Assembly: GCA_965248265.1 (NCBI GenBank)
Contig: CBDFJF010000001.1
Location: 992,001 to 1,056,000 of the forward strand
Length of the DNA stretch: 64,000 nt
Source: Candidatus Latescibacterota bacterium
Lineage (GTDB): Bacteria; Latescibacterota; UBA2968; UBA8231
Direction of reading: 5' to 3'
Positions 1,940 through 26,146 of this stretch are shown piece by piece; position 1 is the first letter of the stretch, and each line of letters begins with the position of its first letter. Position numbers and translations under genes: made by a program. The notes under the pieces were generated by a model that was given only the letters and a program-made list of their open reading frames with translations, was not told where the DNA came from and searched no databases.

Positions 1940-2713
1940 CTACCTCCTGGCAACAAGGACCGCATGTCCATCAGAACCGTCATCATCGTCATCCCATACT
2001 CTCTCACAACTGGAGAACCCCGCCCCCTTGAGCAGGCTGCTGTTGGTTTCAACGGCGAGTCTGATGTCGAAGTTCCAGGCGCCTGTGTTTCCGTTGGGGA
2101 GCTTGGCGATCCACTCATTGTAAAGTTCCAGATACCGGGGCTCTAATTTGGGTGACACCATCTGATCACCTTCGATGTACGTGCCGGTCCTTTTCAGTGA
2201 CGAGTAAATACTAGAATAAACCCCCTGTTTGGTCTCGGGCGGGAAATGATGCAAGGTCAAAATGGAAAGGGCATAGTCAAAGTTGCACAGACCTTTCGGC
2301 CATTCGAGACAGGAAGCTTTGACGACAGAGATCTGATCAAGCCGGTCACTGTACTTTCGACGCAATTGAGCCAGCATCCGGGGTGCCTGGTCGAGCCCTG
2401 TAATCCGTGCATTTGGAGCGCGTTCGAAGATGAACTCGAGCTCTAGTCCAGTGCCGCAGCCCACGTCAAGTATCGCAATCGGGTCTTCGGTCGACGGTAT
2501 CTGGTTCACGGTGGCCGTGTGCAGATACCTGTAGATGTCCCCGAAGCGGGCGTCCCAGAGATGAGCGGTCCCGTCGAAAAACTCACTGGTGCTCTCAACA
2601 CCATCACGAGTCCACTCTGGAAAACCCTCGCCTTCAGGGCCTGGTGCCCGAGTACACGCCTCCCGTGTCCGTTCGAACTCATCATGCAACTGTCTGCGCT
2701 CTGCCTCGGTCAT
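1940..2713 (-). CDS. Class I SAM-dependent methyltransferase
   Basis: ILDVGCGTG motif I, GLDQAPRML, LTLHHF. Confidence 0.9.
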   Translation of the reverse strand: MTEAERRQLHDEFERTREACTRAPGPEGEGFPEWTRDGVESTSEFFDGTAHLWDARFGDIYRYLHTATVNQIPSTEDPIAILDVGCGTGLELEFIFERAPNARITGLDQAPRMLAQLRRKYSDRLDQISVVKASCLEWPKGLCNFDYALSILTLHHFPPETKQGVYSSIYSSLKRTGTYIEGDQMVSPKLEPRYLELYNEWIAKLPNGNTGAWNFDIRLAVETNSSLLKGAGFSSCERVWDDDDDGSDGHAVLVARR

Positions 2714-2719
2714 TTCGCC

Positions 2720-3505
2720 TCAGCGTGCCTGATGATATTCCGACACCAATCGTGAAAGAATGGCAGTCGGATCGATGTCCGGGATGTAGCGCCGAAAGTG
2801 CTTACAGATGTTATGAACGTCGCGGGCAAGCAGGTCGAACGCCTCGGGGTGACGGCTCGCATCGACTACCTGCGGCAAATCGATGAGCACCTCCTTACCC
2901 TCCCAGTACAGGACATTGTATGGGGAGAGGTCGCCGTGAATTCTGTCATGGCTGAGGAGCAACTCGATGTTACGGACGATGCGATCGAAGACCCGATGTG
3001 CCGCCGTCATGCTCAGTGTAACCTCGTTCAGGGCTGGCGCCGCCTCGTTCTCGTCCCCTATGTATTCCATGAGGAGAACTGATTGGCTGCGCTCCACGGG
3101 CATGGGGACCGACCCGCCTGCATTGCGCAACACGCTCATGGATTCGAACTCGTGAGCGATCCATGAGACATCCTCCACCTGCCTGCCGAACCTCTTCCTT
3201 TTCTTAACCGCCCTTCGCAAGGTGCTCTGGCGCCGAGATTCTTCTTTCATACCGAGGAAGTCCCGACCCAGCTGGTACGCGGCCTGATTGCGCATCGCCC
3301 GTTCACGGCGAGGCCGATACACCTTGGCGGCCAGAAGCTCCATCGCTACCCCAGGACCGGCCTGGCAGCAGTATACTGATGCTTCCTTCCCTCCCTTTAC
3401 CGGGTAGAGAATCGCCTCGATGAGCCCTTCCTCGGCGAAACTGTGCAGGTTGGTCTCGAGCCATTTCCTCTCGAACTGTCTTGGTTCGAACGCAAACTCG
3501 ATCAA
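2720..3505 (-). CDS. RIO1-family atypical Ser/Thr kinase
   Basis: KGGKEASVY, AAKVYR, LLMEYIG, IHGDLSPYNVL, IDLPQ; GAGGAG SD before the TTG start. Confidence 0.9.
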   Translation of the reverse strand: MIEFAFEPRQFERKWLETNLHSFAEEGLIEAILYPVKGGKEASVYCCQAGPGVAMELLAAKVYRPRRERAMRNQAAYQLGRDFLGMKEESRRQSTLRRAVKKRKRFGRQVEDVSWIAHEFESMSVLRNAGGSVPMPVERSQSVLLMEYIGDENEAAPALNEVTLSMTAAHRVFDRIVRNIELLLSHDRIHGDLSPYNVLYWEGKEVLIDLPQVVDASRHPEAFDLLARDVHNICKHFRRYIPDIDPTAILSRLVSEYHQAR

Positions 3506-3651: not shown

Positions 3652-4189
3652 GAACACACCTCCTTCCGTGTCTGAGGTGACGATCCAGTATACCGATCAA
3701 CACTCACAGTTACAAGGCCAAAATTGGCCAATATGCATCGAGGCAGACTGTGGTCTATGCGTGGCGGACGCCGTAAATCGATCGATTTCAGCCAGTTAGC
3801 GTGGCGGGAGTGGCGTATTGCTCTCGTAACTGCCGGGCATCGTTGTGATATAACGATGGTCGTGCCCACTGTTGCTCCTGGCGCACTCCACGCCCATTAC
3901 CGACGTTCCACCGCAGTATATTCGGCAAATCCGCCGGCTCACGCAGCGGTCCCTTCGATCGGGAGGTGCGCATTCCCCGAATTTACCCGGGACCGCGAAC
4001 GGGCAGTATTTGAAAACGGCGTGCGGTCCTTGCTCGTTGGGGAGGTGCTTAGTTAGTGGGAAATTACCTGAAGGCCCTGGCTTCGAGACGTGCCGGCGCC
4101 ACTCTGGCCATCGCCGCCGGTGGCGCCGCGGTCTGGGCTGCCGGTTACTGGGGAAACGGCACAGAGCAAGGCCAAGTGTGAAGGTCCGC

Positions 4190-5512
4190 ATGAGTAAACT
4201 TGCTTGGATCCTGGCAGCATCCTGTTTGCTGGCGTTGGATGTCAACGGCGCCGACGCCGATGCAGACCTCTATTGGCCGCAGTGGCGAGGCCCCCTCGGC
4301 AGCGGCGTCGCGCCGGGCGCCGATCCGCCGCTGGAATGGAGTGAGAGCCAGAGTATCAGGTGGAAGGTCGCTCTGCCGGGCAAGGGACACTCCACGCCTG
4401 TCATCTGGGGCGACCGCGTCTTTGCCACGACAGCCGTCCCCTACGGGGAGGCGGTAAAACCCCGCTACAGCGGAGCCCTCAACGCCCACGACGAAACGCC
4501 CGTCACACAACGCCACAGATTCGTGGTGATGGCCCTCAGCCGTAGAGACGGCGAGATCCTCTGGGAACGGACCGTACGGGACGAACTGCCGCAGGCTGGG
4601 GGACATTCCACCGCCAGCCTCGCATCCAACTCTCCGGTGACCGACGGTGAGCACCTGTTCGCCTTCTTCGGCTCGTACGGGCTCTACTGCCTGACCGTCA
4701 ATGGCAACCTGGTGTGGGAGACAGACCTCGGTACGATGGATACGCTCCATGGACATGGCGAGGGCAGCTCGCCGGCGCTTTACGGTGATACGCTCGTCAT
4801 CAACTGGGACCACGAAGGCAAGTCGTTCGTCGTGGCTTTCGACAAGCGGACCGGCGAGGAGCGCTGGAAGATCTTCCGCGATGGGGCCTCGTCATGGACG
4901 ACGCCCATCGTCGTCGACGACGGCGGGACACCACAAGTAATCATCAACGGCTCGAGGGACGTGAGAGGCTACGATCTGACGACCGGCAGCCTGATCTGGG
5001 AATGCGGGGGACTGTCGGTGGAAAACGTAGTGGCCTCGCCTGTGGCCGGAAATGGGATGGTCTTTTCGGGCAGCAGTTACGACAAGCAGTCCATGCTGGC
5101 CATTCGCTTCCACGGCGCCGAAGGCGACATCACCGGTACCAAACGGGTCGTGTGGACCCGCGTTCAGGGGGCGCCGTACGTGCCCTCGCCACTGCTGTAC
5201 GGAGAGTCCCTGTATTTCATCCGCCACTTCCAGGGCATCCTGACCCGCGTCAGCGCCCTGACGGGTGAGAATCGACCCGGGCCGCTGCGTCTGACTGGCC
5301 TCCGCTACGTGTTCGCTTCACCAGTGGGGGCAGAGGGGCGCGTGTACATCACCGACCGCGACGGCACGACACTCGTTATCAGCGACGAGGACAGCCCCCA
5401 AGTGCTGGCAACCAACCGGCTCGACGACACGTTTAGCGCATCGGCAGCCCTCGTCGGCGCCGAGTTGTTTCTGCGCGGGGAGAAATACCTCTACTGCATC
5501 TCGGAAGGTTAA
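4190..5512 (+). CDS. PQQ-binding-like (BamB-like) beta-propeller protein, secreted
   Basis: Signal peptide, WPQWRGP, WKVALPGKGHSTPVIWGD, repeated SSP/W motifs. Start moved from 3872 to ATG 4190. Confidence 0.9.
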   Translation: MSKLAWILAASCLLALDVNGADADADLYWPQWRGPLGSGVAPGADPPLEWSESQSIRWKVALPGKGHSTPVIWGDRVFATTAVPYGEAVKPRYSGALNAHDETPVTQRHRFVVMALSRRDGEILWERTVRDELPQAGGHSTASLASNSPVTDGEHLFAFFGSYGLYCLTVNGNLVWETDLGTMDTLHGHGEGSSPALYGDTLVINWDHEGKSFVVAFDKRTGEERWKIFRDGASSWTTPIVVDDGGTPQVIINGSRDVRGYDLTTGSLIWECGGLSVENVVASPVAGNGMVFSGSSYDKQSMLAIRFHGAEGDITGTKRVVWTRVQGAPYVPSPLLYGESLYFIRHFQGILTRVSALTGENRPGPLRLTGLRYVFASPVGAEGRVYITDRDGTTLVISDEDSPQVLATNRLDDTFSASAALVGAELFLRGEKYLYCISEG

Positions 5513-5617
5513 GACCAGAAACCCACGCGCGTACGAGGCGATGCGTACTATAAGTACCTTCAGGTGAGATAGTATCATGAAAGTAAGGCGCTTGATAGCG
5601 GTACTGAAACCCTACAC

Positions 5618-8600
5618 GTGATGACGCCAGGATTAATCACCTGCCTTCTTGTGGCGCTGCCGATGATCTGCTCCGCTGCTCCGGCAGACGTGGAGCGCAT
5701 CCGCGCCACGGTGGAGTACATGGCCTCCGTTGGCTCTCGGATCAGCGGCTATCCCGGCAGTGACGCGGCCGCCGACTACGTGGCCGAGGCCTTCGCTGCC
5801 GCCGGCATCAGGGAGATCGTCCGCGAGGAGTACCCGCTCAGCGTGCCGCTGGACCGCGGCAGCGAACTGGACATCTCCGCAACCGGCGAGCGCTTTCGCC
5901 TCGATGGGCTGTGGCCCAACCACGTGCGCACGACGACCGTAGAACCCGGGGGCATCACCGGCCACTTGATCTACGGCGGGCAGGGGCACCTAGCCGAGTA
6001 CAACGGCCAGGAAATGGCCGGCAGTATCATCTTGCTCGAATTCAACACCGGCACCCGTTGGTTGGAGGCCGCCTCGCTGGGAGCCCGCGCCATCATCTTC
6101 ATCGAACCTGAAGGCACCTCCTGGCGCGAGGCGAGCACGAAGTTCCTTTCCGTCCCTTTGGACATACCCAGGTTCTGGATCGATGCCGGCGTCGCGGACC
6201 GGCTCCGGGCACTATTGGATGACGGCCCCCTCGATGTGCAGCTGAAGAGCCGCATGGATTGGGTCTCTCGCGCCGGTCGCAATGTCTGGGGCGTGGTTCC
6301 GGGCAACGACCCGGAGCTCCAAAGCGAAACCATCGTCGTCCAGGCTTACTACGACGGCATCTCCGTCGTGCCTGCGCGAGCCCCCTCCGCCGAGACCGCC
6401 GGCAGCATCGCCGCCCTGCTGGAGCTGGCCAGACACCTCCAGCGCCATCCGCCTGCGCGGACCGTGGTGCTGGCGGCCACCGGCGCCCACTTTCTCGCCC
6501 AGCGGGGGATTGTCGATTTCCTCGACCGCCATGCCCGCACCCATGAGGACTACGCCGCGTTGATGGAGGAGCCGCTGCACCCTGACCTCTTCATCAGCCT
6601 GGATCTGACAAGCGGCAGCGATCAGCTCGGCATCTGGAACCACACGAGCCGCTTAGAGACCAAGCGCTTCTACGTCCCCTTCGGTCGCGCCTTTACCGCC
6701 TATGCCGAGGCGGCGGCGGCGCGCCTGGGACGGGTGGCCGAGCGCGCCCTCGTCAACGGCATCAGCCCGCTCAAGGGCCTCGACTGGTCGACCTACGTGC
6801 CGGGCGGCGTCACCGTCGACGGGCAGGTGGCGATGACGGCGGGGCTGGTGGCCCTGTCGTTCGTCACCATCGCCGACGCCCGTTTCGTCGTCGACACCCC
6901 GCTGGACCGGCCGCACCTCGTCGACTTCGACAACCTGGCGCGTCAGAGCGCTTTCCTAAACGAGATTCTGACCAGCGCCTTCAACGACGCGAAGCTGACC
7001 GCGGACCTGGAGAATTTCGACCGGGTCCTCAAGGATCGCCTGCGCACCCTCATCGTCGACGTGCGCGCCTTCCCGCGCCGCAGCCAGGTACCTGACCGCA
7101 TCGTCGAGGGGGCCATCGTCGCCCTGGGCGCCGGAGCCGCCCGTCAAGCCGGTCTGGGGTTCAAACCCCACAAGGGGGTGCGCGCCTTCCATTTCCACCT
7201 GGCCGACGACAGGGGGAGCGCCGTCATCCCCGGACTGCCCCTGGGGGCCGTGCCGGTCAGCGCCTATGTCCTGGATCCGGAGACCGGCGACGTCGTCTAC
7301 GCCCCCGACAACAGCGAGCGCGCCCAGAAGCTGCACGGCAAGAGCATGGCCCAGGCCATTCGCTTCCGCGGCGAGCACAAGACGTTCGTCGTCTTCCCCT
7401 GCATGTCGCGGCCGCTGTTCGGCCTGATCGACCCCCGGTCGCTGCAGGCCGTCAGTGAGATAACAGTTCAAAACCACGCGGGCGTCGCGCCCAAGGAATT
7501 CGGAGTGGCGAAAGGCAGCGGCATCCTGGAACCGGTAGCGGTGGTGTTCGCCGCTGCCGATGACAGCCTCATGTACTTGATGTCGGACAGCATGATTCTC
7601 ACCAACAGCCGCGCCAGAGCGCGCGGCACCGGCTACGTCGTCGGCCGGGACCCACTCGAACGCACCGAATACCTGGCGGTCCAGGACATGTGGCGGCTCA
7701 ACGACGAGCGCCTGGCCACCATGCGCGAGCACGCCATCGAGAACCCGAGACTGGAAGGACTACACGCGTACGGCCGCGAGCTCATCGACCGAGCTACGGC
7801 GGCGGCCGAGAGGAGGGAGTGGGATGTCTTCATGGCCAACGTGCGGGCGGCCAGGGGGATCACCTCCAGGGCCTACCCGGACGTGATGGGGACACTGAAC
7901 GATGTCATCAAGGGGTTGGTGTTTTTCCTGGCATTGGTGCTTCCGGCCGCGTTCTTCGGCGAGCGTCTGCTGTTCGCCGCCGCGGACATCCGCTGGCAGC
8001 TGTCCGGTTTCGCCCTGATCCTGGCCGTCGTCTGGGCGGTGATCTCGCAGGTGCATCCGGCCTTCGCCATCGCCCATCCGACCGTCGTCCTACTGGCCTT
8101 CGCCATCATGGCGATGGCCGCCTTCGTGTTCGCCATGATCTTCTCGCGCTTCGACCACTACGTTAAGGAGCGCCAGGCCCACACCGCCCAGATGTACCGG
8201 GCCGACGTCAATCGCCTCAGCGCTTCCTATGCCGCCTTCACGCTGGGCATATCCAACATGCGGCGGCGCAAGCTGCGCACGGGGCTGACGCTGGTGACGC
8301 TGACCCTGCTCACCTTCGCCGTGCTCTCCTTCACTTCGTTCCGGCCGCAGCTCTCGTTCCTCGCCTTCCCGACGTCGCACGAGGCCCGCTACGAGGGCAC
8401 TCTGATCCGCGACCGTGGCTGGCGGGAGCTGTCGCCGCCGACCCTCAACTACGCCCTCTCCCATTTCGACCGCCAGGCCGTCGTCAGCCCGCGCAACTGG
8501 CTGGTAACCGAAACAGAACACCTCAAGAGCTATATCGAGATCCAGGGGGACGCCGGCACGACGCGGGCCGGTGGTCTGCTGGGACTGTCGCCGCAGGAAA

Positions 8601-10024
8601 CACAGGTCACCCGCATCGACGAAGCCCTGGCCGCTGGCAGTTTCTTCGAGCAGGATGACGAAGCCAGTTGTCTGCTTCCGGAGAAGATGGCGGCGGCGCT
8701 GGGCATCAGCGTCGGGGATGTGGGCCGAGCCACCGTGCGCGTGTTCGGCGCAGACCTCGTCGTCCGCGGCATCATCGACGCCAGCGCGTTCGCCGCCATC
8801 CGGGACCTGGACTCGGAACCTCTGACCCCGGCCGACTTCCAGATGGTCGACCTCCAGATGCGCGGCGGCCAGTCAGAGGTGTCGATGGATGTCGAGGCAG
8901 GAGAGAAAACGGACGAGATCAGGCCGTTCGTGCACGTGCCGGCGGACAACGTGCTGATCATGCCGTACGGGACGGCGTGGGCGGCCGGCGGCACCCTGCG
9001 TTCGATCGGCGTCCGCTTCGGCGAGAACGTGAGGGGCCAGCCCCTGCTGGAGGACTTCCTGACGCGCGTGGCCGTGACCCTGTTCGCCGGCATCCGTGAC
9101 CCGCTCACCGGGGAAGTCGAGGTGTCCTCCTATACGTCCGTCGGTATGACGGCGGTCGAGGGCCTGGGGGCGCTCATCGTGCCCTTGGTCATCGCCGCCC
9201 TCATCGTCCTCAACACCATGCTGGGCGCCGTCTATGAACGCCAGCGGGAGATCGGCGTGTACTCTGCGGTCGGGCTGGCACCCGTGCACATCGCCCTGCT
9301 GTTCGTGGCGGAGGCCTGCGTCTACGCCGTCGTCGGGGTCGTTCTCGGCTACATCCTGGGGCAGAGCGCGGCGAAGCTGCTGCTGGGTTGGGGCCTCGTT
9401 CAGAGCACGGAACTGAACTACTCTTCCATGGCGGCCATCTTTTCCGCCATCATGGTCATGGCCGTGGTGCTGTTGTCGACGATCTACCCGGCGCGCCTCG
9501 CCGCGAACAGCGCCGTGCCGGACACCATGCGGCGCTGGGTACCGCCCCCGCCGGATGGCGACCACTGGGAATTCGACTTCCCCTTCGCGATCGGCGCAGC
9601 CGAGGTCCAGGGATTGAGCGGATTCCTGGCCAACTACTGCAAGGCCAACAACGAGGATTCGGTCGGCAACTTCTACACCGAGGACGTCCGCCTGGTCCGC
9701 GACGTCGAGAGGTCGGGCCCCGGCGGCTGCTCCCTGCTCATGACAGCCTGGCTGGCCCCCTTCGACATGGGCGTGAGCCAGCACCTGCGGCTGGACTTCG
9801 TGCCTTCGTCCGAGCCCAGCATATACGTGGTCAAGGTCATCATCGAGTGGGCCAGCGGTGAAAACTCATCCTGGCGGCGGCTCAATCAGCGCTTCATGAA
9901 CGATCTGCGCAAGCAGTTCCTGCAGTGGCACATGTTCAGCGAAGAAGCCAAGGCTTACCACCAGCAGGCAGCCGAGGTGATGCTGGCGCAGAGCCGGCAG
10001 CAAATCGAGACACCGGAAGGTTGA
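5618..10024 (+). CDS. M28-peptidase-like (nicalin/nicastrin-like) domain fused to an FtsX/MacB-type ABC permease
   Basis: Signal peptide; SRISGYPG..AADYV; PA-like insert; QAYYDGISVVP..APSAE..LLELAR; TM block; NMRRRKLRTGLTL; FtsX motif VYERQREIGVYSAVG. Confidence 0.85.
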   Translation: MMTPGLITCLLVALPMICSAAPADVERIRATVEYMASVGSRISGYPGSDAAADYVAEAFAAAGIREIVREEYPLSVPLDRGSELDISATGERFRLDGLWPNHVRTTTVEPGGITGHLIYGGQGHLAEYNGQEMAGSIILLEFNTGTRWLEAASLGARAIIFIEPEGTSWREASTKFLSVPLDIPRFWIDAGVADRLRALLDDGPLDVQLKSRMDWVSRAGRNVWGVVPGNDPELQSETIVVQAYYDGISVVPARAPSAETAGSIAALLELARHLQRHPPARTVVLAATGAHFLAQRGIVDFLDRHARTHEDYAALMEEPLHPDLFISLDLTSGSDQLGIWNHTSRLETKRFYVPFGRAFTAYAEAAAARLGRVAERALVNGISPLKGLDWSTYVPGGVTVDGQVAMTAGLVALSFVTIADARFVVDTPLDRPHLVDFDNLARQSAFLNEILTSAFNDAKLTADLENFDRVLKDRLRTLIVDVRAFPRRSQVPDRIVEGAIVALGAGAARQAGLGFKPHKGVRAFHFHLADDRGSAVIPGLPLGAVPVSAYVLDPETGDVVYAPDNSERAQKLHGKSMAQAIRFRGEHKTFVVFPCMSRPLFGLIDPRSLQAVSEITVQNHAGVAPKEFGVAKGSGILEPVAVVFAAADDSLMYLMSDSMILTNSRARARGTGYVVGRDPLERTEYLAVQDMWRLNDERLATMREHAIENPRLEGLHAYGRELIDRATAAAERREWDVFMANVRAARGITSRAYPDVMGTLNDVIKGLVFFLALVLPAAFFGERLLFAAADIRWQLSGFALILAVVWAVISQVHPAFAIAHPTVVLLAFAIMAMAAFVFAMIFSRFDHYVKERQAHTAQMYRADVNRLSASYAAFTLGISNMRRRKLRTGLTLVTLTLLTFAVLSFTSFRPQLSFLAFPTSHEARYEGTLIRDRGWRELSPPTLNYALSHFDRQAVVSPRNWLVTETEHLKSYIEIQGDAGTTRAGGLLGLSPQETQVTRIDEALAAGSFFEQDDEASCLLPEKMAAALGISVGDVGRATVRVFGADLVVRGIIDASAFAAIRDLDSEPLTPADFQMVDLQMRGGQSEVSMDVEAGEKTDEIRPFVHVPADNVLIMPYGTAWAAGGTLRSIGVRFGENVRGQPLLEDFLTRVAVTLFAGIRDPLTGEVEVSSYTSVGMTAVEGLGALIVPLVIAALIVLNTMLGAVYERQREIGVYSAVGLAPVHIALLFVAEACVYAVVGVVLGYILGQSAAKLLLGWGLVQSTELNYSSMAAIFSAIMVMAVVLLSTIYPARLAANSAVPDTMRRWVPPPPDGDHWEFDFPFAIGAAEVQGLSGFLANYCKANNEDSVGNFYTEDVRLVRDVERSGPGGCSLLMTAWLAPFDMGVSQHLRLDFVPSSEPSIYVVKVIIEWASGENSSWRRLNQRFMNDLRKQFLQWHMFSEEAKAYHQQAAEVMLAQSRQQIETPEG

Positions 10025-10031
10025 CGATCCA

Positions 10032-12740
10032 TTGGCCGCGCAAGAGCTGACGAGGAAACAACGGGCCAGGCTCGAACGGGAATGGCAGGAGGTCAAGGAA
10101 TACCGCGATCTGCTGCAGCCTCCCGACGGCTTCGACGAAGGCTTCACCATGCGGACGATCATCGGGGTGCTGTTCATCTCGCTGATCATGACGCCGGGAG
10201 AAATGTACCTGGGCCTGGTGACGGGCGGGGGCATCGGGGCCGCGGCCCAGTGGGTGACCGTCATCCTGTTCCTGGAGGTGGCCAAGCGCTCGTTCACCTC
10301 GCTCAAGCGACAGGAAATCTACCTGCTCGTCTACGTCGCCGGGGCGCTTGTGGCGCGCGAAGAGGGCGCCTTCCTCGATCTGCTGTGGCGGCAGTACTTC
10401 GTGCGCTCTCCCGAGGCCGAGCAGTTCGGCGTGGCCGAGATCCTCCCGTTCTGGTGGGCACCCGGACCCACTTCCGAGGCTCTCGAGCTACGCACCTTCA
10501 TTCACCCCGACTGGGCATGGCCGATCGGCCTCCTCGTCCTCGGCACCATCGTCGGGCGCATATCCTGGTTCACCTCCGGGTACGTGCTGTTCCGACTCAC
10601 TTCGGACCGCGAGCAGCTGCCGTTCCCGACCGCACCCATGTCGGCGCTGGGATCGATGGCCCTGGCCGAGGAGAGCGGCGATGAGAAGGAGACCTGGAAG
10701 TGGCCGATCTTCAGCGTCGGGGCCGTCATCGGCGGGGCCTTCGGCGTTCTCTACGTCGGCATCCCGACGTTGACGGAGGTCTTGGGCCAGCGAATCGAGC
10801 TGATCCCCATTCCCTTCGCCGATTTCACGCCCTATCTCGGTCACTTCCTACCGGCTACGCCCTTGGGTATCACGCTCCATCTGGGACCCATTTTCGCCGG
10901 CCTGCTCATGCCGTTCTGGGCGGTGATCGGTTCTTTCTCCGGCGTCGTCGTCCACACGCTTGTGAGTCCCCTGCTCTACGATCTGGGTCTGCTGCCACGC
11001 TGGGTTCTGGGCATGGACACGATCAACACCCAGATCGCCACCGGCATCGATTTCTGGAGGGCGTTCGGGATCGGCATCACCCTGGCCGTCACCTTCATCA
11101 GCTTCTATCAGCTGTGGGCCACCCTGGGCCGGCAGAAGGGGCAGATCAAGGAGTACTTCGGCGGCGATGGAGACGGCGAGAAGCAGTATCCGGCCACCTG
11201 TCGGCACGAAGGGTGCAACCATCCCTCGGAAGTGCGGGGGTACTGCATTAGACACCTGGGCCGGGGCGATTTCAACATCTGGATCTGCATCGGCCTCTTC
11301 AGTGTCGCCGCTATCTACCCGATCCTGCTCGCCAAGACTCTGTTCCCGAGCCTCGTCGGCGTCGGTCTGCTGGTCACCTTCGCCCTGATCGCCTTCGTCT
11401 ACGCCCCGATCATGTCCTTCGTCAGCGCCCGCCTCGACGGCCTCATCGGGCGCGAGGTGGCCATCCCCTACATCAACGAAGCCATCATCTTCCTGACCGG
11501 GTACCGGGGCGTCGACGTCTGGTTCGTGCCCTTTCCGACCCGCAATTTCGGCGGCCACGCCGAGGGCTTCCGCGTCGTCGAGCTGGTCGGTATGCGCTTC
11601 ACCAGTCTGCTCAAGGCCGAAATCTTCATGCTGCCGATCGTCCTCGGCGTCAGCCTGATGTACTGGACCTTCCTGTGGCAGCTGGCGCCGATTCCGTCCG
11701 AGAGCTATCCATACGCCCAGCGCATGTGGCCGCTGCGCGCCTTCGAACAAGCCCTGTTCTATTCCAGCACCATGTACAACACAATGTGGCGGGCCGGGGA
11801 GAGCGTCGACGACGGCGCTGTTCTGGATCACGGACAGGTCGCCTGGAGCCCGAGCAATCTGCAGGACGGTCACTGGTGGTACTGGCGCGCGCGCGCGACC
11901 CGGGAGCACAACATCCCCAACGAACTCAAGAGGGAGTACGGCCCATGGTCGGAGATGGGCTATTTCTACACCGACTTCAAGGGCGGCAACCCCCCTCGCG
12001 CCGGGCCAGATCTGGAGGGGCTCGAGCGGCTCGAGCGGCGAGCGCGAGCCGCCACCGGACGCGCCCGGCACTCGCGAGCACTCAAACCGCCCCCGGCCCC
12101 ACAACTGGCGTGGCCTCCCGTCGGGGCGGTCCTGCATGGAAGCGAGGCGATGAATCCGAACCTGCGCGCGGTCCTGCACTTGGCGGCGGCGGACTCCGTC
12201 GAGTTCTACGTCGAGATCGACCGGCTGCCGACCTTCGACGGGACGTTCTTACAAAAGTCGTCCGACGTACCGTTGATGTATGCGGTATTGTGGGAGGATG
12301 TGAAATACACGGGAGATGGCAAGGACGACGATGGTGACGGCCGCGTCGACGAGGAGGTCAAGAACGGCCGCGACGACGACGGCGACGGGGCCGTTGACGA
12401 GGACATCCATCATCCGTTGCAGGGCAAAAAGTGGAAGATCATCCTGATCGGCACCGGGTTCGGACTCGTGGCCTACTTCGCCCTCGCCGCCTTCGGCATG
12501 CCGATATTCCTGATTTGGGGGTACGTCCAGAGCGTCAACGGCATTCCCCACGCGTTGCTGCCGCAGATCATCGGTGCCCTGTTTGGCCGCTTCTACTTCT
12601 GGAAGCGATACGGAAAGCAGCAGTGGCGGCGATACGCCATGGTGCTGAGCGTCGGCTTCGGCGTCGGCATGGCGCTGGTCGGGATGTTCTGCGCCGCTCT
12701 GGCGATGGTGAGCAAGGCCGTGTCATCGCTCACCTATTGA
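10032..12740 (+). CDS. OPT-superfamily-like peptide transporter with large soluble inserts
   Basis: GFTMRTIIG, QWVTVILFLEVAKR, EQLPFPTAP, APIPSESYPYAQRMWP; many TM helices; starts 7 nt after the upstream stop. Confidence 0.8.
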   Translation: MAAQELTRKQRARLEREWQEVKEYRDLLQPPDGFDEGFTMRTIIGVLFISLIMTPGEMYLGLVTGGGIGAAAQWVTVILFLEVAKRSFTSLKRQEIYLLVYVAGALVAREEGAFLDLLWRQYFVRSPEAEQFGVAEILPFWWAPGPTSEALELRTFIHPDWAWPIGLLVLGTIVGRISWFTSGYVLFRLTSDREQLPFPTAPMSALGSMALAEESGDEKETWKWPIFSVGAVIGGAFGVLYVGIPTLTEVLGQRIELIPIPFADFTPYLGHFLPATPLGITLHLGPIFAGLLMPFWAVIGSFSGVVVHTLVSPLLYDLGLLPRWVLGMDTINTQIATGIDFWRAFGIGITLAVTFISFYQLWATLGRQKGQIKEYFGGDGDGEKQYPATCRHEGCNHPSEVRGYCIRHLGRGDFNIWICIGLFSVAAIYPILLAKTLFPSLVGVGLLVTFALIAFVYAPIMSFVSARLDGLIGREVAIPYINEAIIFLTGYRGVDVWFVPFPTRNFGGHAEGFRVVELVGMRFTSLLKAEIFMLPIVLGVSLMYWTFLWQLAPIPSESYPYAQRMWPLRAFEQALFYSSTMYNTMWRAGESVDDGAVLDHGQVAWSPSNLQDGHWWYWRARATREHNIPNELKREYGPWSEMGYFYTDFKGGNPPRAGPDLEGLERLERRARAATGRARHSRALKPPPAPQLAWPPVGAVLHGSEAMNPNLRAVLHLAAADSVEFYVEIDRLPTFDGTFLQKSSDVPLMYAVLWEDVKYTGDGKDDDGDGRVDEEVKNGRDDDGDGAVDEDIHHPLQGKKWKIILIGTGFGLVAYFALAAFGMPIFLIWGYVQSVNGIPHALLPQIIGALFGRFYFWKRYGKQQWRRYAMVLSVGFGVGMALVGMFCAALAMVSKAVSSLTY

Positions 12741-12890
12741 GAAAAGCAAGCGGCGAGCCCCAGCGGAGTCGAACGGTACTCCTCATCGATCGGATCGATC
12801 TCAGCACGTGAGTCGCGGTCGAATAGGAATCGTTTCGATAAAGTCTGATGTTCGGGGTGGTAACCCAAGAACCGAAACTGAGTGGCGTGT

Positions 12891-12955
12891 ATCCGGGTCT
12901 GGATATTGTTTTAAGTGCATTTTGTTACGTATACAACCAGTTTATCTGACATGAC
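12891..12955 (+). repeat. Dispersed repeat, copy A (possible right half of an attC-like element)
   Basis: ATCCGGGTCT and an exact 21-mer TTGTTACGTATACAACCAGTT (12922-12942) shared with 37521-37585. Confidence 0.75.
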
Positions 12956-13009
12956 TTTGTGACGGCTTTCATGTAGATTACGAGCAATGGCCGCAAAGGA
13001 GCTACCACA

Positions 13010-13222
13010 ATTAAGTACCGAGTTGTCGTGGAAGTAGATGAAGACGGTGTGTTTGTTGCCGAGGTCCCTGTCTTGCCTGGATGCATCTCTCAGGGCGCTT
13101 CGCGAGACGCGGCTCTCGCCAACATCCGGGAGGCTATCTCCCTTTACATTGAGAGTCTTGAGAAACGTGGCGAACCGGTTCCTCCACCCATTAGTGAGGA
13201 AATCGTCGAGGTCGGTAATTGA
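13010..13222 (+). CDS. hicB: HicB-family antitoxin (orphan), likely ATT start
   Basis: KYRVVVEVDEDGVFVAEVPVLPGCISQG..EAISLYIE; SD AAGGAG precedes ATT at 13010. Confidence 0.8.
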   Translation: MKYRVVVEVDEDGVFVAEVPVLPGCISQGASRDAALANIREAISLYIESLEKRGEPVPPPISEEIVEVGN

Positions 13223-14243
13223 AATCAAGGCGATCGCGCAACTCAAGGACACCATCAGGTAGGGGATAGGCAACGAATACTATTTCCGAATGCTGCGTTG
13301 TGTTGACCTCGAAGGCGACGAGCACGATCGTGTCGCCTGGATCCACCGCTTCGTCAATCTCCGGATCGGCCAGAAACGCGAAATCGCCCACCGTTGTTGG
13401 AAGAATCGTCTCCCAGGCGCTCTGCAAGTCAGATAGTATGTCGCGAACTACCGGCTCCATCCGGGCCCGCTCATCAGAGGTCAACGAGTAATCCTGATTT
13501 GCGCCCTTCCCCAACATAGAGAAGACCAATGGCATGGCCACATCGAGCACCGAACGGCTTCGCATCGTGCTTATGCTGAAGGTGCACAGACATCCGGTTC
13601 GCGGCAGCGATCGGACATGTTGGATGTACTCGAGATAGGTCGTCTGGTCGATAAAGCGCGTGTCACACATAGCCGTATCGCCCAGGTGGTGCGAAAGAGT
13701 TTTTGCGAGCAGAGGTGCGTATGCGTCGTGCAGAAGCTCCATGGTGAACAGCTGGGGGCTACTTAGCTTGGTCCAGCCGGCGGCCGGCTCAAAGGTTTCG
13801 ACTAACCTAGGCCAACTGTTGAATCCGTATTCCCGTGCTAACACGAACTGGGCATCGTTGAGAGTGAACTCGCCACCGCGGCTCATGCCGGCCCTCTCGG
13901 TCGCCTCCTCATCGCCGGCTCGGTAAGCCCTGAGTAGCTTCTTGGCCTGTTTCTTCAAATGCTCCAGGCTGGCACCGCCTCGCAGCAACTTGTGCCCCCA
14001 GCCTGCTTCCTGCACTGAATGCCAACTCTCGAATCCGTGTTCGCGCGATGCGACCTCGAGCGTATCTGTGACGTTGCCGGAGGCGAGAATCTCGCCATCC
14101 GAGGCATGTGCGAAACGGGGCGACAACTGCCGAACGCGCGGGCAAACGGTCTGGTCACCGCGTAGCAGCGCTTGCAGGATTACACGAGCATCCCGACGGA
14201 TCTGGCCGATGTCGGGCTTGGACGGGGATTGTGACTTGGACAT
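13191..14243 (-). CDS. Protein with a duplicated LKKQAK..AREYGF.SW helical domain fused to a FliM/CheC-like domain
   Basis: Repeats IRRDAR..SREHGFESW and LKKQAKKLL..AREYGFNSW; C-terminal IDQTTYLEYI, LVFSMLG, ILSDLQSAWETI, IVLVAFEV, VAYP resemble the FliM middle domain. Confidence 0.7.
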   Translation of the reverse strand: MSKSQSPSKPDIGQIRRDARVILQALLRGDQTVCPRVRQLSPRFAHASDGEILASGNVTDTLEVASREHGFESWHSVQEAGWGHKLLRGGASLEHLKKQAKKLLRAYRAGDEEATERAGMSRGGEFTLNDAQFVLAREYGFNSWPRLVETFEPAAGWTKLSSPQLFTMELLHDAYAPLLAKTLSHHLGDTAMCDTRFIDQTTYLEYIQHVRSLPRTGCLCTFSISTMRSRSVLDVAMPLVFSMLGKGANQDYSLTSDERARMEPVVRDILSDLQSAWETILPTTVGDFAFLADPEIDEAVDPGDTIVLVAFEVNTTQHSEIVFVAYPLPDGVLELRDRLDFNYRPRRFPH

Positions 14244-18162: not shown

Positions 18163-19476
18163 TGCAGCAACCGGGCTGATAGGTAACAGTCTAAACCGGG
18201 TTGATGGGTGACACTATTGTTTTGATTGAATTCACTCCCGTACGATCATGTCCCTCTCGTCGACGGTGGCTAGGAGGACGGTGTTGAAGTAGATGGCCCA
18301 GACGCCGTCGTCGATCTCCTCGAGACCGATGTCGAGATGCTTGAGAGACTGAGCGATGAAGATGAGCTTGTGGCCGAGGCGTATGGTCCCGGCTCGGGTG
18401 ACGTGCTTGATGACGAAGTGACCGGGGTACTCAATGGTCGGCATGCGGCCGGGATAGGGCCGGGGTGATGGGTGGTACCGGGAGCCAGGAGTCTTGCCGT
18501 TGAGGGCGTCATGGGGACGCTCGTCGTTGTAGAGCTGTCGGAAGCGCTGGAAGGATCGCTGCTGGGCGGCCTTGTTGGCGGCGGGTGGCCGACAGGTAGC
18601 GGCCTTCAAGGTGCGATGCATGCGTTCGTGGGCGCCATTTTCCTGCGGCGATGCCGGGCGGATCCGCTGGTGCACGATGCCGAGCCTCATCCACCAAACG
18701 TTGAGTCGGCATAGCCCATGCAATCCTCTGGAAGCAAAGGGAACGCCGTTGTCGGTGCGAATGGCCTGAGGCAGGCCGAATTCGCGGAAGGCTCTCTCGA
18801 AGACCGGACGCGCATGCAAGGTCTTGATGTCGGGCAGGGCGCGGCAGGTCAGGAGATAGCGAGTGTGCTGATCGCTGATGGTGAGAGGGAAACACCAAAC
18901 TCCGTTCTTGGTAGGAAATTGGCCTTTGAAGTCGGCCGTCCACAGATCGTTGGGGTTGTCGGTGGTCGGCGGCACGGCTCCGGGGTGCTGACGTGGGCGT
19001 CGTCGTCGTCGCTTCTTCACCAGGCCTTCGCGCACCAGCAGATCGCCTGCCGTACTGACCGCCGGCCAGGAGCAGATGTGCGGATGTCGAGGCGCCAGCC
19101 AGTCCAACAGTTTGTTCGGTCCCCAATCGGGGTGCCGTGTGCGCGCTCCGAGAATGAGCTCGGCAATCTCTGGCGCCATGCGATGCGGACAGGTGTGGGG
19201 CGCGTGACTGCGGTCCCGTAACCCGGGCACCCCCTCTTCGGCGTGCCGCTGAAGCCACTTGTATCCGGTTTTGCGGCTGATCCCGTATCGCTCGCACAGC
19301 TCCGCTCTCGAGTAATGCCCGCGCTGATCGTCGGCGATAAATCGCTTACGTTGTTCCATGGGTGCTGTCTCCATCCAGGGCATCGACCAACCTCCCAATT
19401 GGGGTTGGTCAAAAAGTAGAAGGAGTGTCACCCATCAACCCGGTCAGATGTGTTACCAATCTACCCGGTTTGTACC
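18163..19476 (-). mobile_element. IS481-family insertion sequence
   Basis: Imperfect terminal IRs, each with two ACCGGG..ATNGGTRACA units (18163-18215 and 19424-19476); no clear target duplication. Confidence 0.85.
18232..19383 (-). CDS. IS481-family DDE transposase
   Basis: MPWME start, YGISRKTGYKW HTH, WTADFKG, IRTDNG, PQENGAHERMHRTLK. Confidence 0.92.
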   Translation of the reverse strand: MPWMETAPMEQRKRFIADDQRGHYSRAELCERYGISRKTGYKWLQRHAEEGVPGLRDRSHAPHTCPHRMAPEIAELILGARTRHPDWGPNKLLDWLAPRHPHICSWPAVSTAGDLLVREGLVKKRRRRRPRQHPGAVPPTTDNPNDLWTADFKGQFPTKNGVWCFPLTISDQHTRYLLTCRALPDIKTLHARPVFERAFREFGLPQAIRTDNGVPFASRGLHGLCRLNVWWMRLGIVHQRIRPASPQENGAHERMHRTLKAATCRPPAANKAAQQRSFQRFRQLYNDERPHDALNGKTPGSRYHPSPRPYPGRMPTIEYPGHFVIKHVTRAGTIRLGHKLIFIAQSLKHLDIGLEEIDDGVWAIYFNTVLLATVDERDMIVRE

Positions 19477-24178: not shown

Positions 24179-26146
24179 TTGTCAGGTAAAACAGAGAGGG
24201 AGTCGGCGACAGGAGTGACGCCGCGCTCATTGGTCATCGGAGCTGGACTCAGCCTGTTGATCGGAGTGGGCGAGCCTTACGGTTCGCGGGTCATCATGGG
24301 CAGCCATATGAGCTCATTGAATGGTCCTGCCGCTTTCTTCCTGTTCTTTGTGTGGGTGGGTGTTGTCCAGGTCCTGTTAGCAGTCATCCACCGCAGGCTG
24401 GTCCTGGGCAAGGCGGAGTTGCTGACCATTTACCTCATGATGGTCGTGGCCACGGCGTTCTCGGGTGGAGAGCGTAACGGATTCACCTTTATGCTGTTGG
24501 GGTCCGTTGCCGGAGTATTCTACCTGGCGAAGCCGGAGAACGACTGGGCGGAGCGAGTTCATCCCTACGTAGCGGATTGGATGGTCCCCCACGACGAGCT
24601 GGGGATCCAGTGGTTCTTCGAGGGGATGCCGGATGGCGAGTCCATTCCTTGGGACATGTGGCTGCCGCCGCTGCTGTGGTGGTTGGTGTTCATGGTGGGG
24701 TTGTGGACGGTGAGCATCTGCACGATGGTGATTCTCCGTCGCCAGTGGGTGGAACACGAGCACCTGATCTATCCTATCACCAAAGTGCCTCTGGCGATGG
24801 TAGAGCCACCATCTGGCGGTTCGTTGGTGGCGCCTTTTTTCAAGAGCCGCCTGATGTGGGTGGGATTGCTGCTGACGTTTGGTCGGGAGAGCCTCAACGC
24901 CCTGAACCACTACTTCCCCTTCGTTCCCGTGATTCCGAGACACCTGGGACAGGTGTCACTGCTGCGACGCGTCGCCAGTGTAGGCTTCTCGATGAATCTG
25001 ATGATCCTGGGGTTTGCGTATTTCCTCAAACCGGACGTGATGTTCGGGATGTGGATATTCTACATCCTGCGACGCCTGGAGGAGGGTGTACTGACCTTGA
25101 CGGGGGCGGGCATTGGAGAAGATCTGTCTGGTTTTGGCGGTGGCGGCGGCGTTACAGGAGTGCTGGCCCATCAGACCATCGGGGCCATGATCGCACTGGT
25201 GCTCTTCGGGCTCTGGATCGCCCGGGGGCATCTGCGGAACGTGTTTCGGAAGGCGTTCAGAGGGGATGCTTCGGTGGACGATTCCGACGAAGTCATGTCT
25301 TACCGGACAGCCGTATGGGGGGTGATCCTCGGCGTGGTCGTGATGAGCGTGTGGCTGTGGCGTGCGGGGTTGCCACTTTGGGCGGGGCTGCTGTTTCTAT
25401 TTGGCGCCCTGGTGACCTTTACCAGCCTGACGCGCATCATCGCGGAGGCGGGGTTGCCGATGGTGTTTCCCCGAAACATCCCCCTGGACTTCGTGATCTC
25501 CGGGATCGGGACGCGGTACATAGGGCCTTCGGGAATTGGGGCGCTGGCGCCGACGGTGATATGGACGGAGTCTCTGGCGAGCACGATGATGGCGCATGCC
25601 GCCACGGGGTTGAAGCTGGCCGGGGAGATCGCCTATCGCAAGCGCTGGATGTTGTTGGCGCTGGCGATCGCTATCGGGGTTTCCGCGGTCAGTACGTTCT
25701 GGATGTCGATGTCGATAGCCTATCGGGAGGGGGGAATCAATATAGCTGGTTCCATGAGCTATCTTCCCAACTATACCTGGGATTATATGGCCCGGCGAGT
25801 CGACGAGAATGCGGGACCGAACTGGCTCGGTTGGCTCATCCGGTTGGCGGGGGGTGGGGTGATGGCGAGTCTTCTGATTTTGCAGCGCCGGTTCCTGTGG
25901 TGGCCGCTACATCCTCTTGGATTTGTGGTCAGTATGGATAGGGTAATGGATACGGCTTGGTTTCCGGTCTTTGTGGCCTGGTTGATGAAGTCGGTCCTTT
26001 TGAAGTATGGTGGCCTCAACGCCTACCGCTCGCTCATTCCTGTTTTCTACGGGTTGATCCTGGGTCAGTTCGTGGCTGGAGGATTCTGGCTGATCGTTGA
26101 CTATTTCACCGGGATGATGGGCAATTCAATAACCATGGACTTCTAG
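24179..26146 (+). CDS. DUF6785/DUF6784-like (OPT-related) polytopic membrane protein
   Basis: RSLVIG, ELLTIYLMM, LRRQWVEHEHLIYPI, RIIAEAG, WWPLHPLG, LKYGG..GLILG. Confidence 0.8.
   Translation: MSGKTERESATGVTPRSLVIGAGLSLLIGVGEPYGSRVIMGSHMSSLNGPAAFFLFFVWVGVVQVLLAVIHRRLVLGKAELLTIYLMMVVATAFSGGERNGFTFMLLGSVAGVFYLAKPENDWAERVHPYVADWMVPHDELGIQWFFEGMPDGESIPWDMWLPPLLWWLVFMVGLWTVSICTMVILRRQWVEHEHLIYPITKVPLAMVEPPSGGSLVAPFFKSRLMWVGLLLTFGRESLNALNHYFPFVPVIPRHLGQVSLLRRVASVGFSMNLMILGFAYFLKPDVMFGMWIFYILRRLEEGVLTLTGAGIGEDLSGFGGGGGVTGVLAHQTIGAMIALVLFGLWIARGHLRNVFRKAFRGDASVDDSDEVMSYRTAVWGVILGVVVMSVWLWRAGLPLWAGLLFLFGALVTFTSLTRIIAEAGLPMVFPRNIPLDFVISGIGTRYIGPSGIGALAPTVIWTESLASTMMAHAATGLKLAGEIAYRKRWMLLALAIAIGVSAVSTFWMSMSIAYREGGINIAGSMSYLPNYTWDYMARRVDENAGPNWLGWLIRLAGGGVMASLLILQRRFLWWPLHPLGFVVSMDRVMDTAWFPVFVAWLMKSVLLKYGGLNAYRSLIPVFYGLILGQFVAGGFWLIVDYFTGMMGNSITMDF

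Follow-up and report, generated by a model that had tools for sequence, protein, structure and literature searches.

The locus described here raises the question of why a peptidase-like domain, a MacB/FtsX-type permease module and an OPT-like transporter should be encoded side by side. It lies in a window of 64,000 nucleotides from a Candidatus Latescibacterota bacterium (assembly GCA_965248265.1, contig CBDFJF010000001.1, positions 992,001 to 1,056,000, renumbered from 1), which belongs to a 7.32-Mb genome in two contigs. Gene 1 (positions 5618 to 10024, plus strand) is an open reading frame (ORF) for a protein of 1468 amino acids (aa; P0001) that combines an M28/PA-like ectodomain, a MacB/FtsX-type permease module and a C-terminal domain, probably cytoplasmic. 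Gene 2 (10032 to 12740, plus strand) encodes a divergent polytopic membrane protein of the OPT superfamily (902 aa; P0002), and the gap between the two is only 7 nucleotides (cgatcca). Both reading frames, with their coordinates, lengths and spacing, are as described in an initial annotation made from the DNA letters, and the M28-fold segment quoted there, IVVQAYYDGISVVPARAPSAETAGSIAALLELAR, is found in the gene 1 translation. In this system, a type VII ATP-binding cassette (ABC) permease that bears a pseudo-peptidase head appears to be partnered by an OPT-fold protein; the pair is unstudied and probably serves nutrient uptake. In the reading that we prefer, with a probability of about 0.5, the two genes specify an inner-membrane machine in which the type VII ABC (MacB/FtsX) module and the OPT-fold permease carry out ATP-assisted uptake of periplasmic oligomers.

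The N-proximal part of the gene 1 protein (aa ~25-460, positions 5690 to 6997), referred to below as the head, has an M28 fold with an inserted PA domain and a degenerate metal site. When a gene 1 family profile made from 36 full-length homologues is compared with the PDB, the best matches are the bacterial aminopeptidases 2ek8 (E-value (E) 5.7e-13) and YwaD/BSAP (6hc6, E 2.2e-10). MacB-type permeases come next, followed lower down by leucyl aminopeptidase, nicalin (E 0.0077) and transferrin receptor (E 0.11). Residues 1-770 were modelled with AlphaFold from 38 sequences, which gave a mean pLDDT of 89.3 and a pTM of 0.89. Foldseek comparison of the head model with the PDB returns 2ek8 (E 3.1e-25), BSAP 6hc6 (E 6.4e-23) and PaAP, the bacterial PA-M28 matches ranging from 3.1e-25 to 4e-22; the eukaryotic matches are transferrin receptor 1 (TfR1; E 1.9e-21), NAALADase L and GCPII (~1e-18). 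Similarly, hhalign aligns the head with a canonical PA-M28 peptidase of the same genome over 365 columns (probability 95.8%, E 7.5e-9). The PA-M28 aminopeptidases of Aneurinibacillus AM-1 (2ek8), B. subtilis (BSAP/YwaD, 6hc6) and P. aeruginosa (PaAP, 8acg) are thus the best matches in sequence as well as in fold, and their PA insertion is at the same place as in the gene 1 head. They are, however, soluble secreted enzymes, whereas gene 1 encodes a membrane fusion protein.

As judged from the aligned residues, the canonical binuclear zinc site of these enzymes is gone from the head domain, since the ligand map shows most of the ligands to be lost or changed. The map was drawn from HMMER alignments to 2ek8 and 6hc6 and from the hhalign alignment with the canonical PA-M28 peptidase of the same genome, and both agree. 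The aminopeptidases present His, Asp, Glu-Glu, Asp and His where gene 1 has Y244, E259, H291-F292, D329 and E375. The His of the HxD motif is replaced by Y244, the Asp of this motif (D246) being retained, and the bridging Asp is conservatively changed to E259. H291 takes the place of the general-base (catalytic) Glu and F292 that of the ligand Glu. The fourth zinc ligand, an Asp, is retained as D329, and E375, at a variable position, stands where the enzymes have the fifth, a His. The tally for the five ligands of the zinc pair (His, Asp, Glu, Asp, His) is therefore one retained, one conservatively changed and three lost. The loss of canonical ligands had been suggested by the initial annotation and the site is indeed non-canonical, although the 'GAH' it assigned to the Glu-Glu position is one residue out of register, this position being H291-F292. 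The full two-zinc site of ordinary aminopeptidases, which was to be looked for in the head, is not present there. Among 38 family sequences, with identities down to 34%, Y244, D246, H291, R307 and R422 are invariant. Residue 259 is E, D or T, mostly E, residue 329 is D or E, and residue 375 is variable. The strong constraint on the old active-site positions suggests that the pocket is conserved, whether as a binding site or for an altered chemistry.

The parallel for such a head is found among the M28B proteins. TfR1, an M28 homologue that has lost catalytic activity, functions as a receptor; like GCPII, it shares the M28 plus PA fold and is membrane-anchored. By analogy, TfR1 would be the closest functional counterpart of the gene 1 head, which may accordingly represent a bacterial M28 fold turned from enzyme into probable receptor; TfR1 and GCPII differ from it in that they are eukaryotic, cross the membrane once as type II proteins and lack a permease module. 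Nicalin and nicastrin are inactive M28-superfamily ectodomains residing inside membrane complexes, and the head had initially been likened to them. This kinship did not hold up: nicalin matches the gene 1 profile at E 0.0077 (7tm3_7, 16.7 bits, residues 242-308 only), compared with 5.7e-13 for the bacterial PA-M28 aminopeptidase. The 50 Foldseek matches listed include neither of the two proteins, and both were rejected as the closest relatives. The partners of these proteins (NOMO/TMEM147 and gamma-secretase) have no counterpart here, so that the resemblance is one of analogy, not of membership.

The head is preceded by a hydrophobic N-terminus that resembles a signal peptide (aa 1-20, positions 5618 to 5677). 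The hydropathy peak covers aa 1-19, the model has pLDDT values below 50 over the same residues, and a hydrophobic N-terminus is also found in relatives. Gene 1 starts with GTG, an ATG being one codon further on. The public gene call of the protein (P0005, 1453 aa) is 15 residues shorter and fits a start 15 codons later, which would cut the signal peptide. Downstream of the head there follow a beta-rich periplasmic domain (aa ~475-661, positions 7040 to 7600; strands E475-E661 in model m3f8b40947002) with no Pfam match, and three long helices that lead into the membrane (aa 683-764, positions 7664 to 7909; H683-704, H710-731 and H735-764 in the model). According to hydropathy the protein is extracytoplasmic up to ~762. 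An extra block of three transmembrane (TM) helices (aa ~763-845, positions 7904 to 8152; peaks at 763-781, 800-818 and 823-841) stands before the FtsX module and is separated from it by a short cytoplasmic linker. This block is strongly conserved in 36 homologues, with invariant columns between 766 and 845.

The permease module itself is of the MacB type. TM1 (aa 889-908) and the TM1-TM2 periplasmic domain (aa ~909-1180) occupy positions 8282 to 9157; MacB chains align from about residue 1115, and MacB_PCD (PF12704) is scored in this region of gene 1 homologues, including a fused protein discussed below. The FtsX domain proper (aa 1186-1297, positions 9173 to 9508) comprises TM2, the cytoplasmic coupling loop, TM3 and TM4. 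It matches Pfam FtsX (PF02687) with E 2.1e-14 and 54 bits, against a cut-off of 25.5, and is the sole Pfam family seen in gene 1. PDB sequence matches of the FtsX part are MacB, YtrF and LolC (E 2.6e-6 to 7.8e-5). The four hydropathy peaks (890-908, 1180-1198, 1225-1243 and 1271-1289) leave ~270 aa between the first two, as expected for MacB-type helices. Pfam, PDB matches and hydropathy thus bear out the fusion to a MacB/FtsX permease with an extra TM block that had been read from the sequence. Gene 1 has full-length homologues at 48-100% identity. In the alignment of 36 homologues, E1207, R1208, I1212 and G1219 of the cytoplasmic TM2-TM3 loop are invariant.

The protein ends in a family-specific domain of ~170 aa (aa 1298-1468, positions 9509 to 10021) that has many invariant columns and no Pfam match. 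It would be cytoplasmic if the topology is that of MacB. In a search for this domain in other contexts, 40 shorter proteins were matched, in which the only families found were FtsX or MacB_PCD; most are on short contigs, and we read them as pieces of the gene 1 family.

Gene 2 was assigned from its predicted fold and from its relatives. No Pfam or NCBIfam family is found in the protein: there is no OPT match at E <= 0.1, nor any to DUF6785 or DUF6784. Profiles of the gene 2 family and of the DUF6785 family gave nothing meaningful against solved structures, and for this reason the fold of gene 2 was modelled (pLDDT 76.5, pTM 0.76). The only Foldseek matches of the model at E <= 0.001 are to HvYS1, barley Yellow Stripe 1 (7wst_A, E 1.1e-7; 7wsr_A, E 3.6e-7), over 571 columns with a TM-score on the target of 0.53-0.54, the next match having E 0.2. 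This upholds the OPT-like character first proposed for gene 2. Sequence continuity is provided by relatives. The gene 2 family profile collects 1224 proteins at E <= 0.001 among 1.84 billion representatives, and when ten relatives of ~620-660 aa were sampled, eight had a Pfam OPT match, seven of them above the 25.8-bit cut-off. These OPT-positive relatives align with the DUF6785/DUF6784 family nearly end to end (hhalign probability 98.4%, E 7.2e-15, 569 columns), while the DUF6785 family and the gene 2 family are linked at a probability of 68.6% and E 4.6e-5, which makes the former a distant relative of gene 2 and gene 2 not a member of it. Owing to these hhalign and profile links, gene 2, its OPT-positive relatives of ~630 aa and DUF6785/DUF6784 can be placed in one OPT superfamily. 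An ESM Atlas search with gene 2 found Latescibacterota clusters only, with scores of at most 0.80, one of them auto-named 'Peptide transporter'; it was not used.

Gene 2 shares with the OPT/YSL proteins (PF03169; HvYS1 7wsr and 7wst) its fold and, via the ~630-aa relatives, a continuity of sequence. It is unlike them in having no Pfam match, in its tie to an FtsX-type protein and in carrying two insertions. The smaller of these (aa ~388-410, positions 11193 to 11261; columns 440-475 of alignment A2) is rich in Cys and His and is absent from homologues of 661-663 aa. The larger (aa ~581-800, ~220 aa, positions 11772 to 12431) is lineage-specific and contains, according to alignment A2 and the model (strands E584-E730), beta strands and two acidic repeats of the DDDGDG type. 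In homologues of ~1063-1115 aa, PDZ domains are inserted at this place; PDZ_6 and PDZ are found in a 1063-aa homologue (locus L015) and in many database homologues. The Cys/His-rich loop, conserved in the long forms of gene 2, resembles a small zinc-binding knuckle; its match to Pfam Zf_WRKY19 (E 0.0017, 18.6 bits) is below the threshold (cut-off 27).

Whether the two genes belong together can be judged from their relatives. A scan with one genome per species gave at least 564 related stretches; the 80 best of these were retrieved together with their flanks. The FtsX protein is almost always encoded beside OPT-superfamily proteins, and is sometimes fused with them. An OPT-like gene lies within 1 kb and on the same strand in 77 of the 80 loci, with sequences down to 37% identity. 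Of the three others, two have DUF6785 further off, 3.5-4 kb upstream, and the third runs into a contig end. A gene-2-like gene is directly downstream of the FtsX gene in 46 of 78 assessable loci and a DUF6785 gene directly upstream in 44 of 72; in 18 of the 80, DUF6785 is directly downstream or fused. DUF6785/DUF6784, homologous to the OPT-positive relatives of gene 2, is the commonest second or fusion partner of the FtsX protein. Fourteen of the 80 loci contain a single fused ORF of 2086-2215 aa, and the one checked by Pfam (L027) displays M28, MacB_PCD, FtsX, DUF6785 and DUF6784 in this order. The same domain content is found in 8 of 120 listed database homologues. Co-occurrence in other genomes, on which the initial annotation had staked its proposal, is therefore seen in the great majority of loci and extends to 14 natural fusions to DUF6785. 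In the genome of the window there are four gene 1 paralogues. Three are directly followed by a gene-2-like gene, and one of these also has DUF6785 upstream. At E <= 1e-50, the gene 1 family is present in 155 of 168 genomes of the phylum Latescibacterota and in 13 of its 14 families, the remaining family having no match in 13 genomes.

The genes around these clusters vary. An M42 aminopeptidase gene is just upstream in 12 loci; other neighbours are a sulfatase with its maturase, an amidohydrolase and glycoside-hydrolase-like genes. Some clusters are near genes for SurA-like peptidyl-prolyl isomerases and for proteins that carry type IX secretion C-terminal domains. In the fetched loci, the cluster has no conserved outer-membrane or adaptor component beside it. 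In one subfamily (L009-L021, L025, L066 and others), genes for a DnaJ-domain protein, a YbjN/CesT-like protein, PspA/IM30, a flavin amine oxidase and a spermidine-synthase-like protein are found downstream. They may form a separate membrane-stress or polyamine operon, or may be linked to the cluster.

A permease of the MacB type calls attention to its ATPase, and the initial annotation had remarked that none is adjacent. A scan for Walker A and signature motifs missed the ATPases beside the ordinary FtsX genes of the genome and, being insensitive, cannot show absence; a Pfam ABC_tran search was used instead. In the genome, ABC_tran is matched within 4.1 kb of each of the six ordinary FtsX loci, but nowhere within 30 kb of any of the four M28-FtsX genes, that of the window included. 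The remark is thus correct for this locus, but it does not extend to all relatives. In two other families of the phylum, a 262-aa ATPase is encoded directly upstream of the cluster and on the same strand, the gene order being ATPase, DUF6785, M28-FtsX and gene-2-like. Nine loci have this arrangement (L039, L040, L042, L043, L045, L114, L134, L136 and L138; L133 is on the same contig as L045). These ATPases are 53-59% identical to a stand-alone ATPase of 251 aa in the genome studied here (G000:C2:3084522-3085274; L085:6523-7278), which retains all ABC motifs and belongs to the clade of the ATPases found beside ordinary FtsX genes. The neighbours of the stand-alone copy encode UvrB, a MerR-type response regulator, a short-chain dehydrogenase and further metabolic enzymes, with no permease gene among them. 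Orthologues with 80-88% identity are present in 69 of 75 genomes of the same family. In the 12 such loci checked, the dehydrogenase is found in all and the regulator in 8, and none has a match to FtsX, gene 1, gene 2 or DUF6785. Typically, two to three matches to this ATPase clade are found per genome in the phylum, one type being located beside a small FtsX gene. By elimination, the stand-alone ATPase would correspond to the cluster-adjacent one. The family that has no M28-FtsX gene (0/13) also mostly lacks this ATPase clade (2/13); since a single lineage is involved, this co-loss counts as one event. The survey of gene neighbourhoods for ABC ATPases, proposed at the outset, thus identified a candidate upstream in nine loci, though not an adjacent one in most, and the gene 1 system is probably not ATPase-free.

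Separately, a 214-236-aa FtsX-domain protein and a sister-clade ATPase are encoded 1-3 kb downstream of the cluster in three distant loci, L056, L071 and L079. In the genome of the window, the small FtsX and sister ATPase genes stand as a pair of their own (G000:C1:3119200-3120374).

Compared with type VII ABC proteins (MacB, LolC/LolE, FtsX, YtrF, HrtB and BceB), gene 1 has in common the FtsX TM2-TM4 region, the cytoplasmic loop and the TM1-TM2 periplasmic domain, and its relatives can have in cis a single-domain ATPase of the clade found beside the ordinary FtsX genes of the genome studied here. It differs in the addition of a ~760-aa ectodomain (M28/PA, beta-rich and helical parts), of three TM helices and of the 170-aa C-terminal domain. 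Two further differences are that no ATPase is encoded in cis here and that gene 1 has an OPT-fold protein as its obligate neighbour or fusion partner; to our knowledge, no characterised type VII ABC member has such a partner.

How the parts might work can be outlined as follows. The peptidase-like head would bind periplasmic oligomers, most likely peptides, or serve as their receptor, and the FtsX module would pass a conformational change to this head. The substrate would then be handed over to the OPT-fold permease or permeases for uptake. A MacB/LolD-type ATPase, encoded upstream in relatives and presumably supplied by the stand-alone copy here, would power the module. The most economical mechanism may be that ATP-driven movements of the type VII ABC kind work a receptor-like head, which loads or gates the OPT-fold permease(s). 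We infer both the direction of transport and the nature of the substrate. Uptake is favoured because characterised OPT/YSL proteins are importers (TC 2.A.67), because DUF6785 paralogues adjoin catabolic enzymes and because the clusters adjoin varying catabolic genes. Peptides are suggested by the descent of the head from an aminopeptidase, by the PDZ insertions and by the M42 gene nearby. A more specific version, to be taken as tentative and somewhat doubtful, assumes a hybrid of primary and secondary transporter: an ATP-driven mechanotransducer of the MacB type, whose dead-peptidase receptor head loads or gates proton-coupled permeases of OPT fold.

Several observations weigh against this uptake model. 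The gene 1 protein itself has no Pfam M28 match (PF04389, cut-off 21.3 bits) at E <= 0.1, so that its M28 assignment rests on profile and fold evidence; the cut-off is passed by three paralogues in the genome (37.8, 34.9 and 22.6 bits), by the fused L027 homologue (25 bits) and by 29 of 120 listed gene 1 homologues. Invariance of the pocket could reflect an altered catalysis instead of binding. The glycan-degrading neighbours of DUF6785 genes (see below) and the sulfatases near clusters imply that the substrate may not be a peptide. The fourth gene 1 paralogue of the genome (G000:C2:1314231-1321914, L086) has no OPT-like neighbour; a 948-aa UPF0182 gene (Pfam E 6.3e-289) is next to it. As regards the ATPase, it is not adjacent in most loci. 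Among five second-paralogue ATPase loci examined, one (L114) adjoins a cluster, and in a further set of six regions four do so (L133, L134, L136 and L138), the remaining two having the ATPase 5.5 and 6.2 kb off. In the ATPase tree, the stand-alone copy, the cluster-adjacent clade and the small-FtsX-adjacent clade form a three-way split. Finally, the predicted complex of residues 846-1468 with the stand-alone ATPase scores only 0.36, the best of three controls having 0.00, and argues weakly for docking; the score may reflect likeness only, because complexes of MacB, LolCDE and FtsEX are already solved. Of 80 solved complexes, 58 attain the mark that this complex attains, and so do 2 of the 110 mismatched pairs; at a score of 0.60 or less it is attained by only 7 of the 80 and by both mismatches. 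In the complex runs at least 45% of the contacts agree and the partner has a pLDDT of at least 75.

Some of these points are what alternative explanations build upon. One could imagine that the FtsX module needs no ATPase and is either a scaffold or is moved, via the C-terminal domain, by the proton-driven cycle of the OPT partner. The 0/4 versus 6/6 distribution of ABC_tran matches, the conserved ~170-aa cytoplasmic domain that follows TM4 and is seen in no other context, and the fused forms, in which this domain is joined directly to DUF6785, are all in keeping with such a scheme, as is the scarcity of nearby ATPase genes in most of the 80 loci, as far as the insensitive motif scan can tell. 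We nevertheless regard it as unlikely. The nine relatives with a MacB/LolD-type ATPase directly upstream speak against it, as does the retention, in 69 of 75 genomes of the family, of a permease-less ATPase of the same clade. Moreover, the TM2-TM3 loop contacts the ATPase in solved MacB-type transporters, and it is the motif in this loop (E1207, R1208, I1212 and G1219) that is invariant in gene 1. The weak predicted docking (0.36 versus 0.00) and the joint absence of M28-FtsX and ATPase clade from one family, a single lineage, point the same way. Alternatively, the head may still be an enzyme with a remodelled one-metal or metal-free site made of E259, D329, H291 and Y244, which trims substrates whose products enter via the OPT permease. 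A functional pocket of this kind would account for the invariance of Y244, D246 and H291 at ancestral active-site positions, for the near-invariance of D329 and for the preference for E at 259; the fold is otherwise intact and confidently modelled, and three paralogues score above the Pfam M28 threshold. Yet the site has lost three of its five metal ligands, another residue stands in place of the general-base Glu, position 259 varies between E, D and T, that of the fifth ligand is variable, and the searches made found no known M28 enzyme with this set of residues. We therefore give an enzymatic head a small chance.

The direction of transport might also be reversed. All characterised type VII ABC systems that we know of (MacB, LolCDE and FtsEX) act outward or on the periplasmic side of the membrane. 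The machine could thus serve export or envelope maintenance, either by pushing or pulling out a substrate at the periplasmic face or by governing a periplasmic activity, with the OPT-fold proteins supplying substrate from the cytoplasm. PspA/IM30, DnaJ-domain and YbjN/CesT-like genes downstream in one subfamily, and the SurA-like isomerases and type IX secretion C-terminal-domain proteins beside other clusters, would suit such a role. It is made improbable by the import function of characterised OPT/YSL members, by a neighbourhood that is variable and mostly catabolic (M42 peptidase, sulfatase, amidohydrolase, glycoside-hydrolase-like) and by the lack of a conserved outer-membrane or adaptor component. 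The possibility that the genes are mere neighbours, co-regulated without being physically or functionally joined, could appeal to the single genome paralogue that has no OPT-like neighbour. With adjacency in 77 of 80 loci at identities down to 37%, with 14 in-frame fusions and with a gap of 7 nucleotides here, it can be virtually dismissed. The preferred reading thus remains that of an ATP-assisted uptake machine with a receptor-like head.

If the parts do cooperate, they would embody a new logic of substrate capture at the inner membrane. A role would be found for DUF6785, for DUF6784 and for a large, unannotated OPT-like family, and a gene set that is a hallmark of an uncultured phylum of global distribution would be explained. 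The hybrid version, if true, would add a third way, besides TRAP and TTT, of equipping a secondary transporter with a binding protein. It would be the first case of a type VII ABC module serving an importer and could be the main nutrient-uptake device of Latescibacterota, where 155 of 168 genomes have it, usually in several copies. We know of no MacB/FtsX-type module that works with a secondary transporter. A text search found no literature on DUF6785, DUF6784, PF20581 or PF20580, and the search listings contained none joining Latescibacter and FtsX.

A further gene of the window (24179 to 26146; P0003) encodes a protein with DUF6785 (PF20581, E 1.9e-117) and DUF6784 (PF20580, E 2.4e-29). It was initially described as DUF6785-like, OPT-related and a third component of the machine. 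The first two attributes are correct. As a third subunit it was rejected: it is 11 kb away, with unrelated genes and an IS481-like transposase in between, and is one of 33 paralogous places, with nothing to link it to the operon. The transposase gene (18232 to 19431, minus strand) has rve, HTH_32 and LZ_Tnp_IS481 domains. When the window copy is used in tblastn, 33 near-full-length DUF6785/DUF6784 places and 3 fragments are found in the 7.3-Mb genome. Most of the 33 are not beside an M28-FtsX gene. Of ten neighbours of these paralogues that were sampled, several are glycan-degrading-like (GH42/GH66-like, DUF4838/GH67N, pectate-lyase/GH88-like and FG-GAP proteins) or belong to the enolase superfamily. 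DUF6785 proteins may be the main substrate importers of polysaccharide-utilisation-like loci in the phylum.

As to the immediate setting of the operon, gene 2 starts with TTG, with GGAAGG ~12 nucleotides ahead of it. A promoter and terminator scan of positions 5300-13300, which was not used as evidence, found no promoter-like site and two terminator-like sites, compared with a mean of 4.8 in shuffled sequence; one of them (13128-13142, plus strand) comes after gene 2. The 5' neighbour of gene 1 is a PQQ/BamB-like beta-propeller gene (3872-5512). On the 3' side, a gene on the opposite strand (13191-14243), convergent to the operon, encodes a 350-aa protein with a FliM domain (E 2.2e-16); no other flagellar family was found among the neighbouring window ORFs scanned. 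Neither of these flanking genes is kept beside relatives of the gene pair in the fetched loci. Near the fourth gene 1 paralogue, a second ORF of 948 aa, with no Pfam match, lies ~7 kb from the UPF0182 gene on the other strand. RIO kinases are uncommon in bacteria; in the window, a gene for a RIO-type kinase (2720-3505, minus strand, E 3.9e-36) adjoins one for a class I S-adenosylmethionine (SAM) methyltransferase (1940-2713, minus strand).

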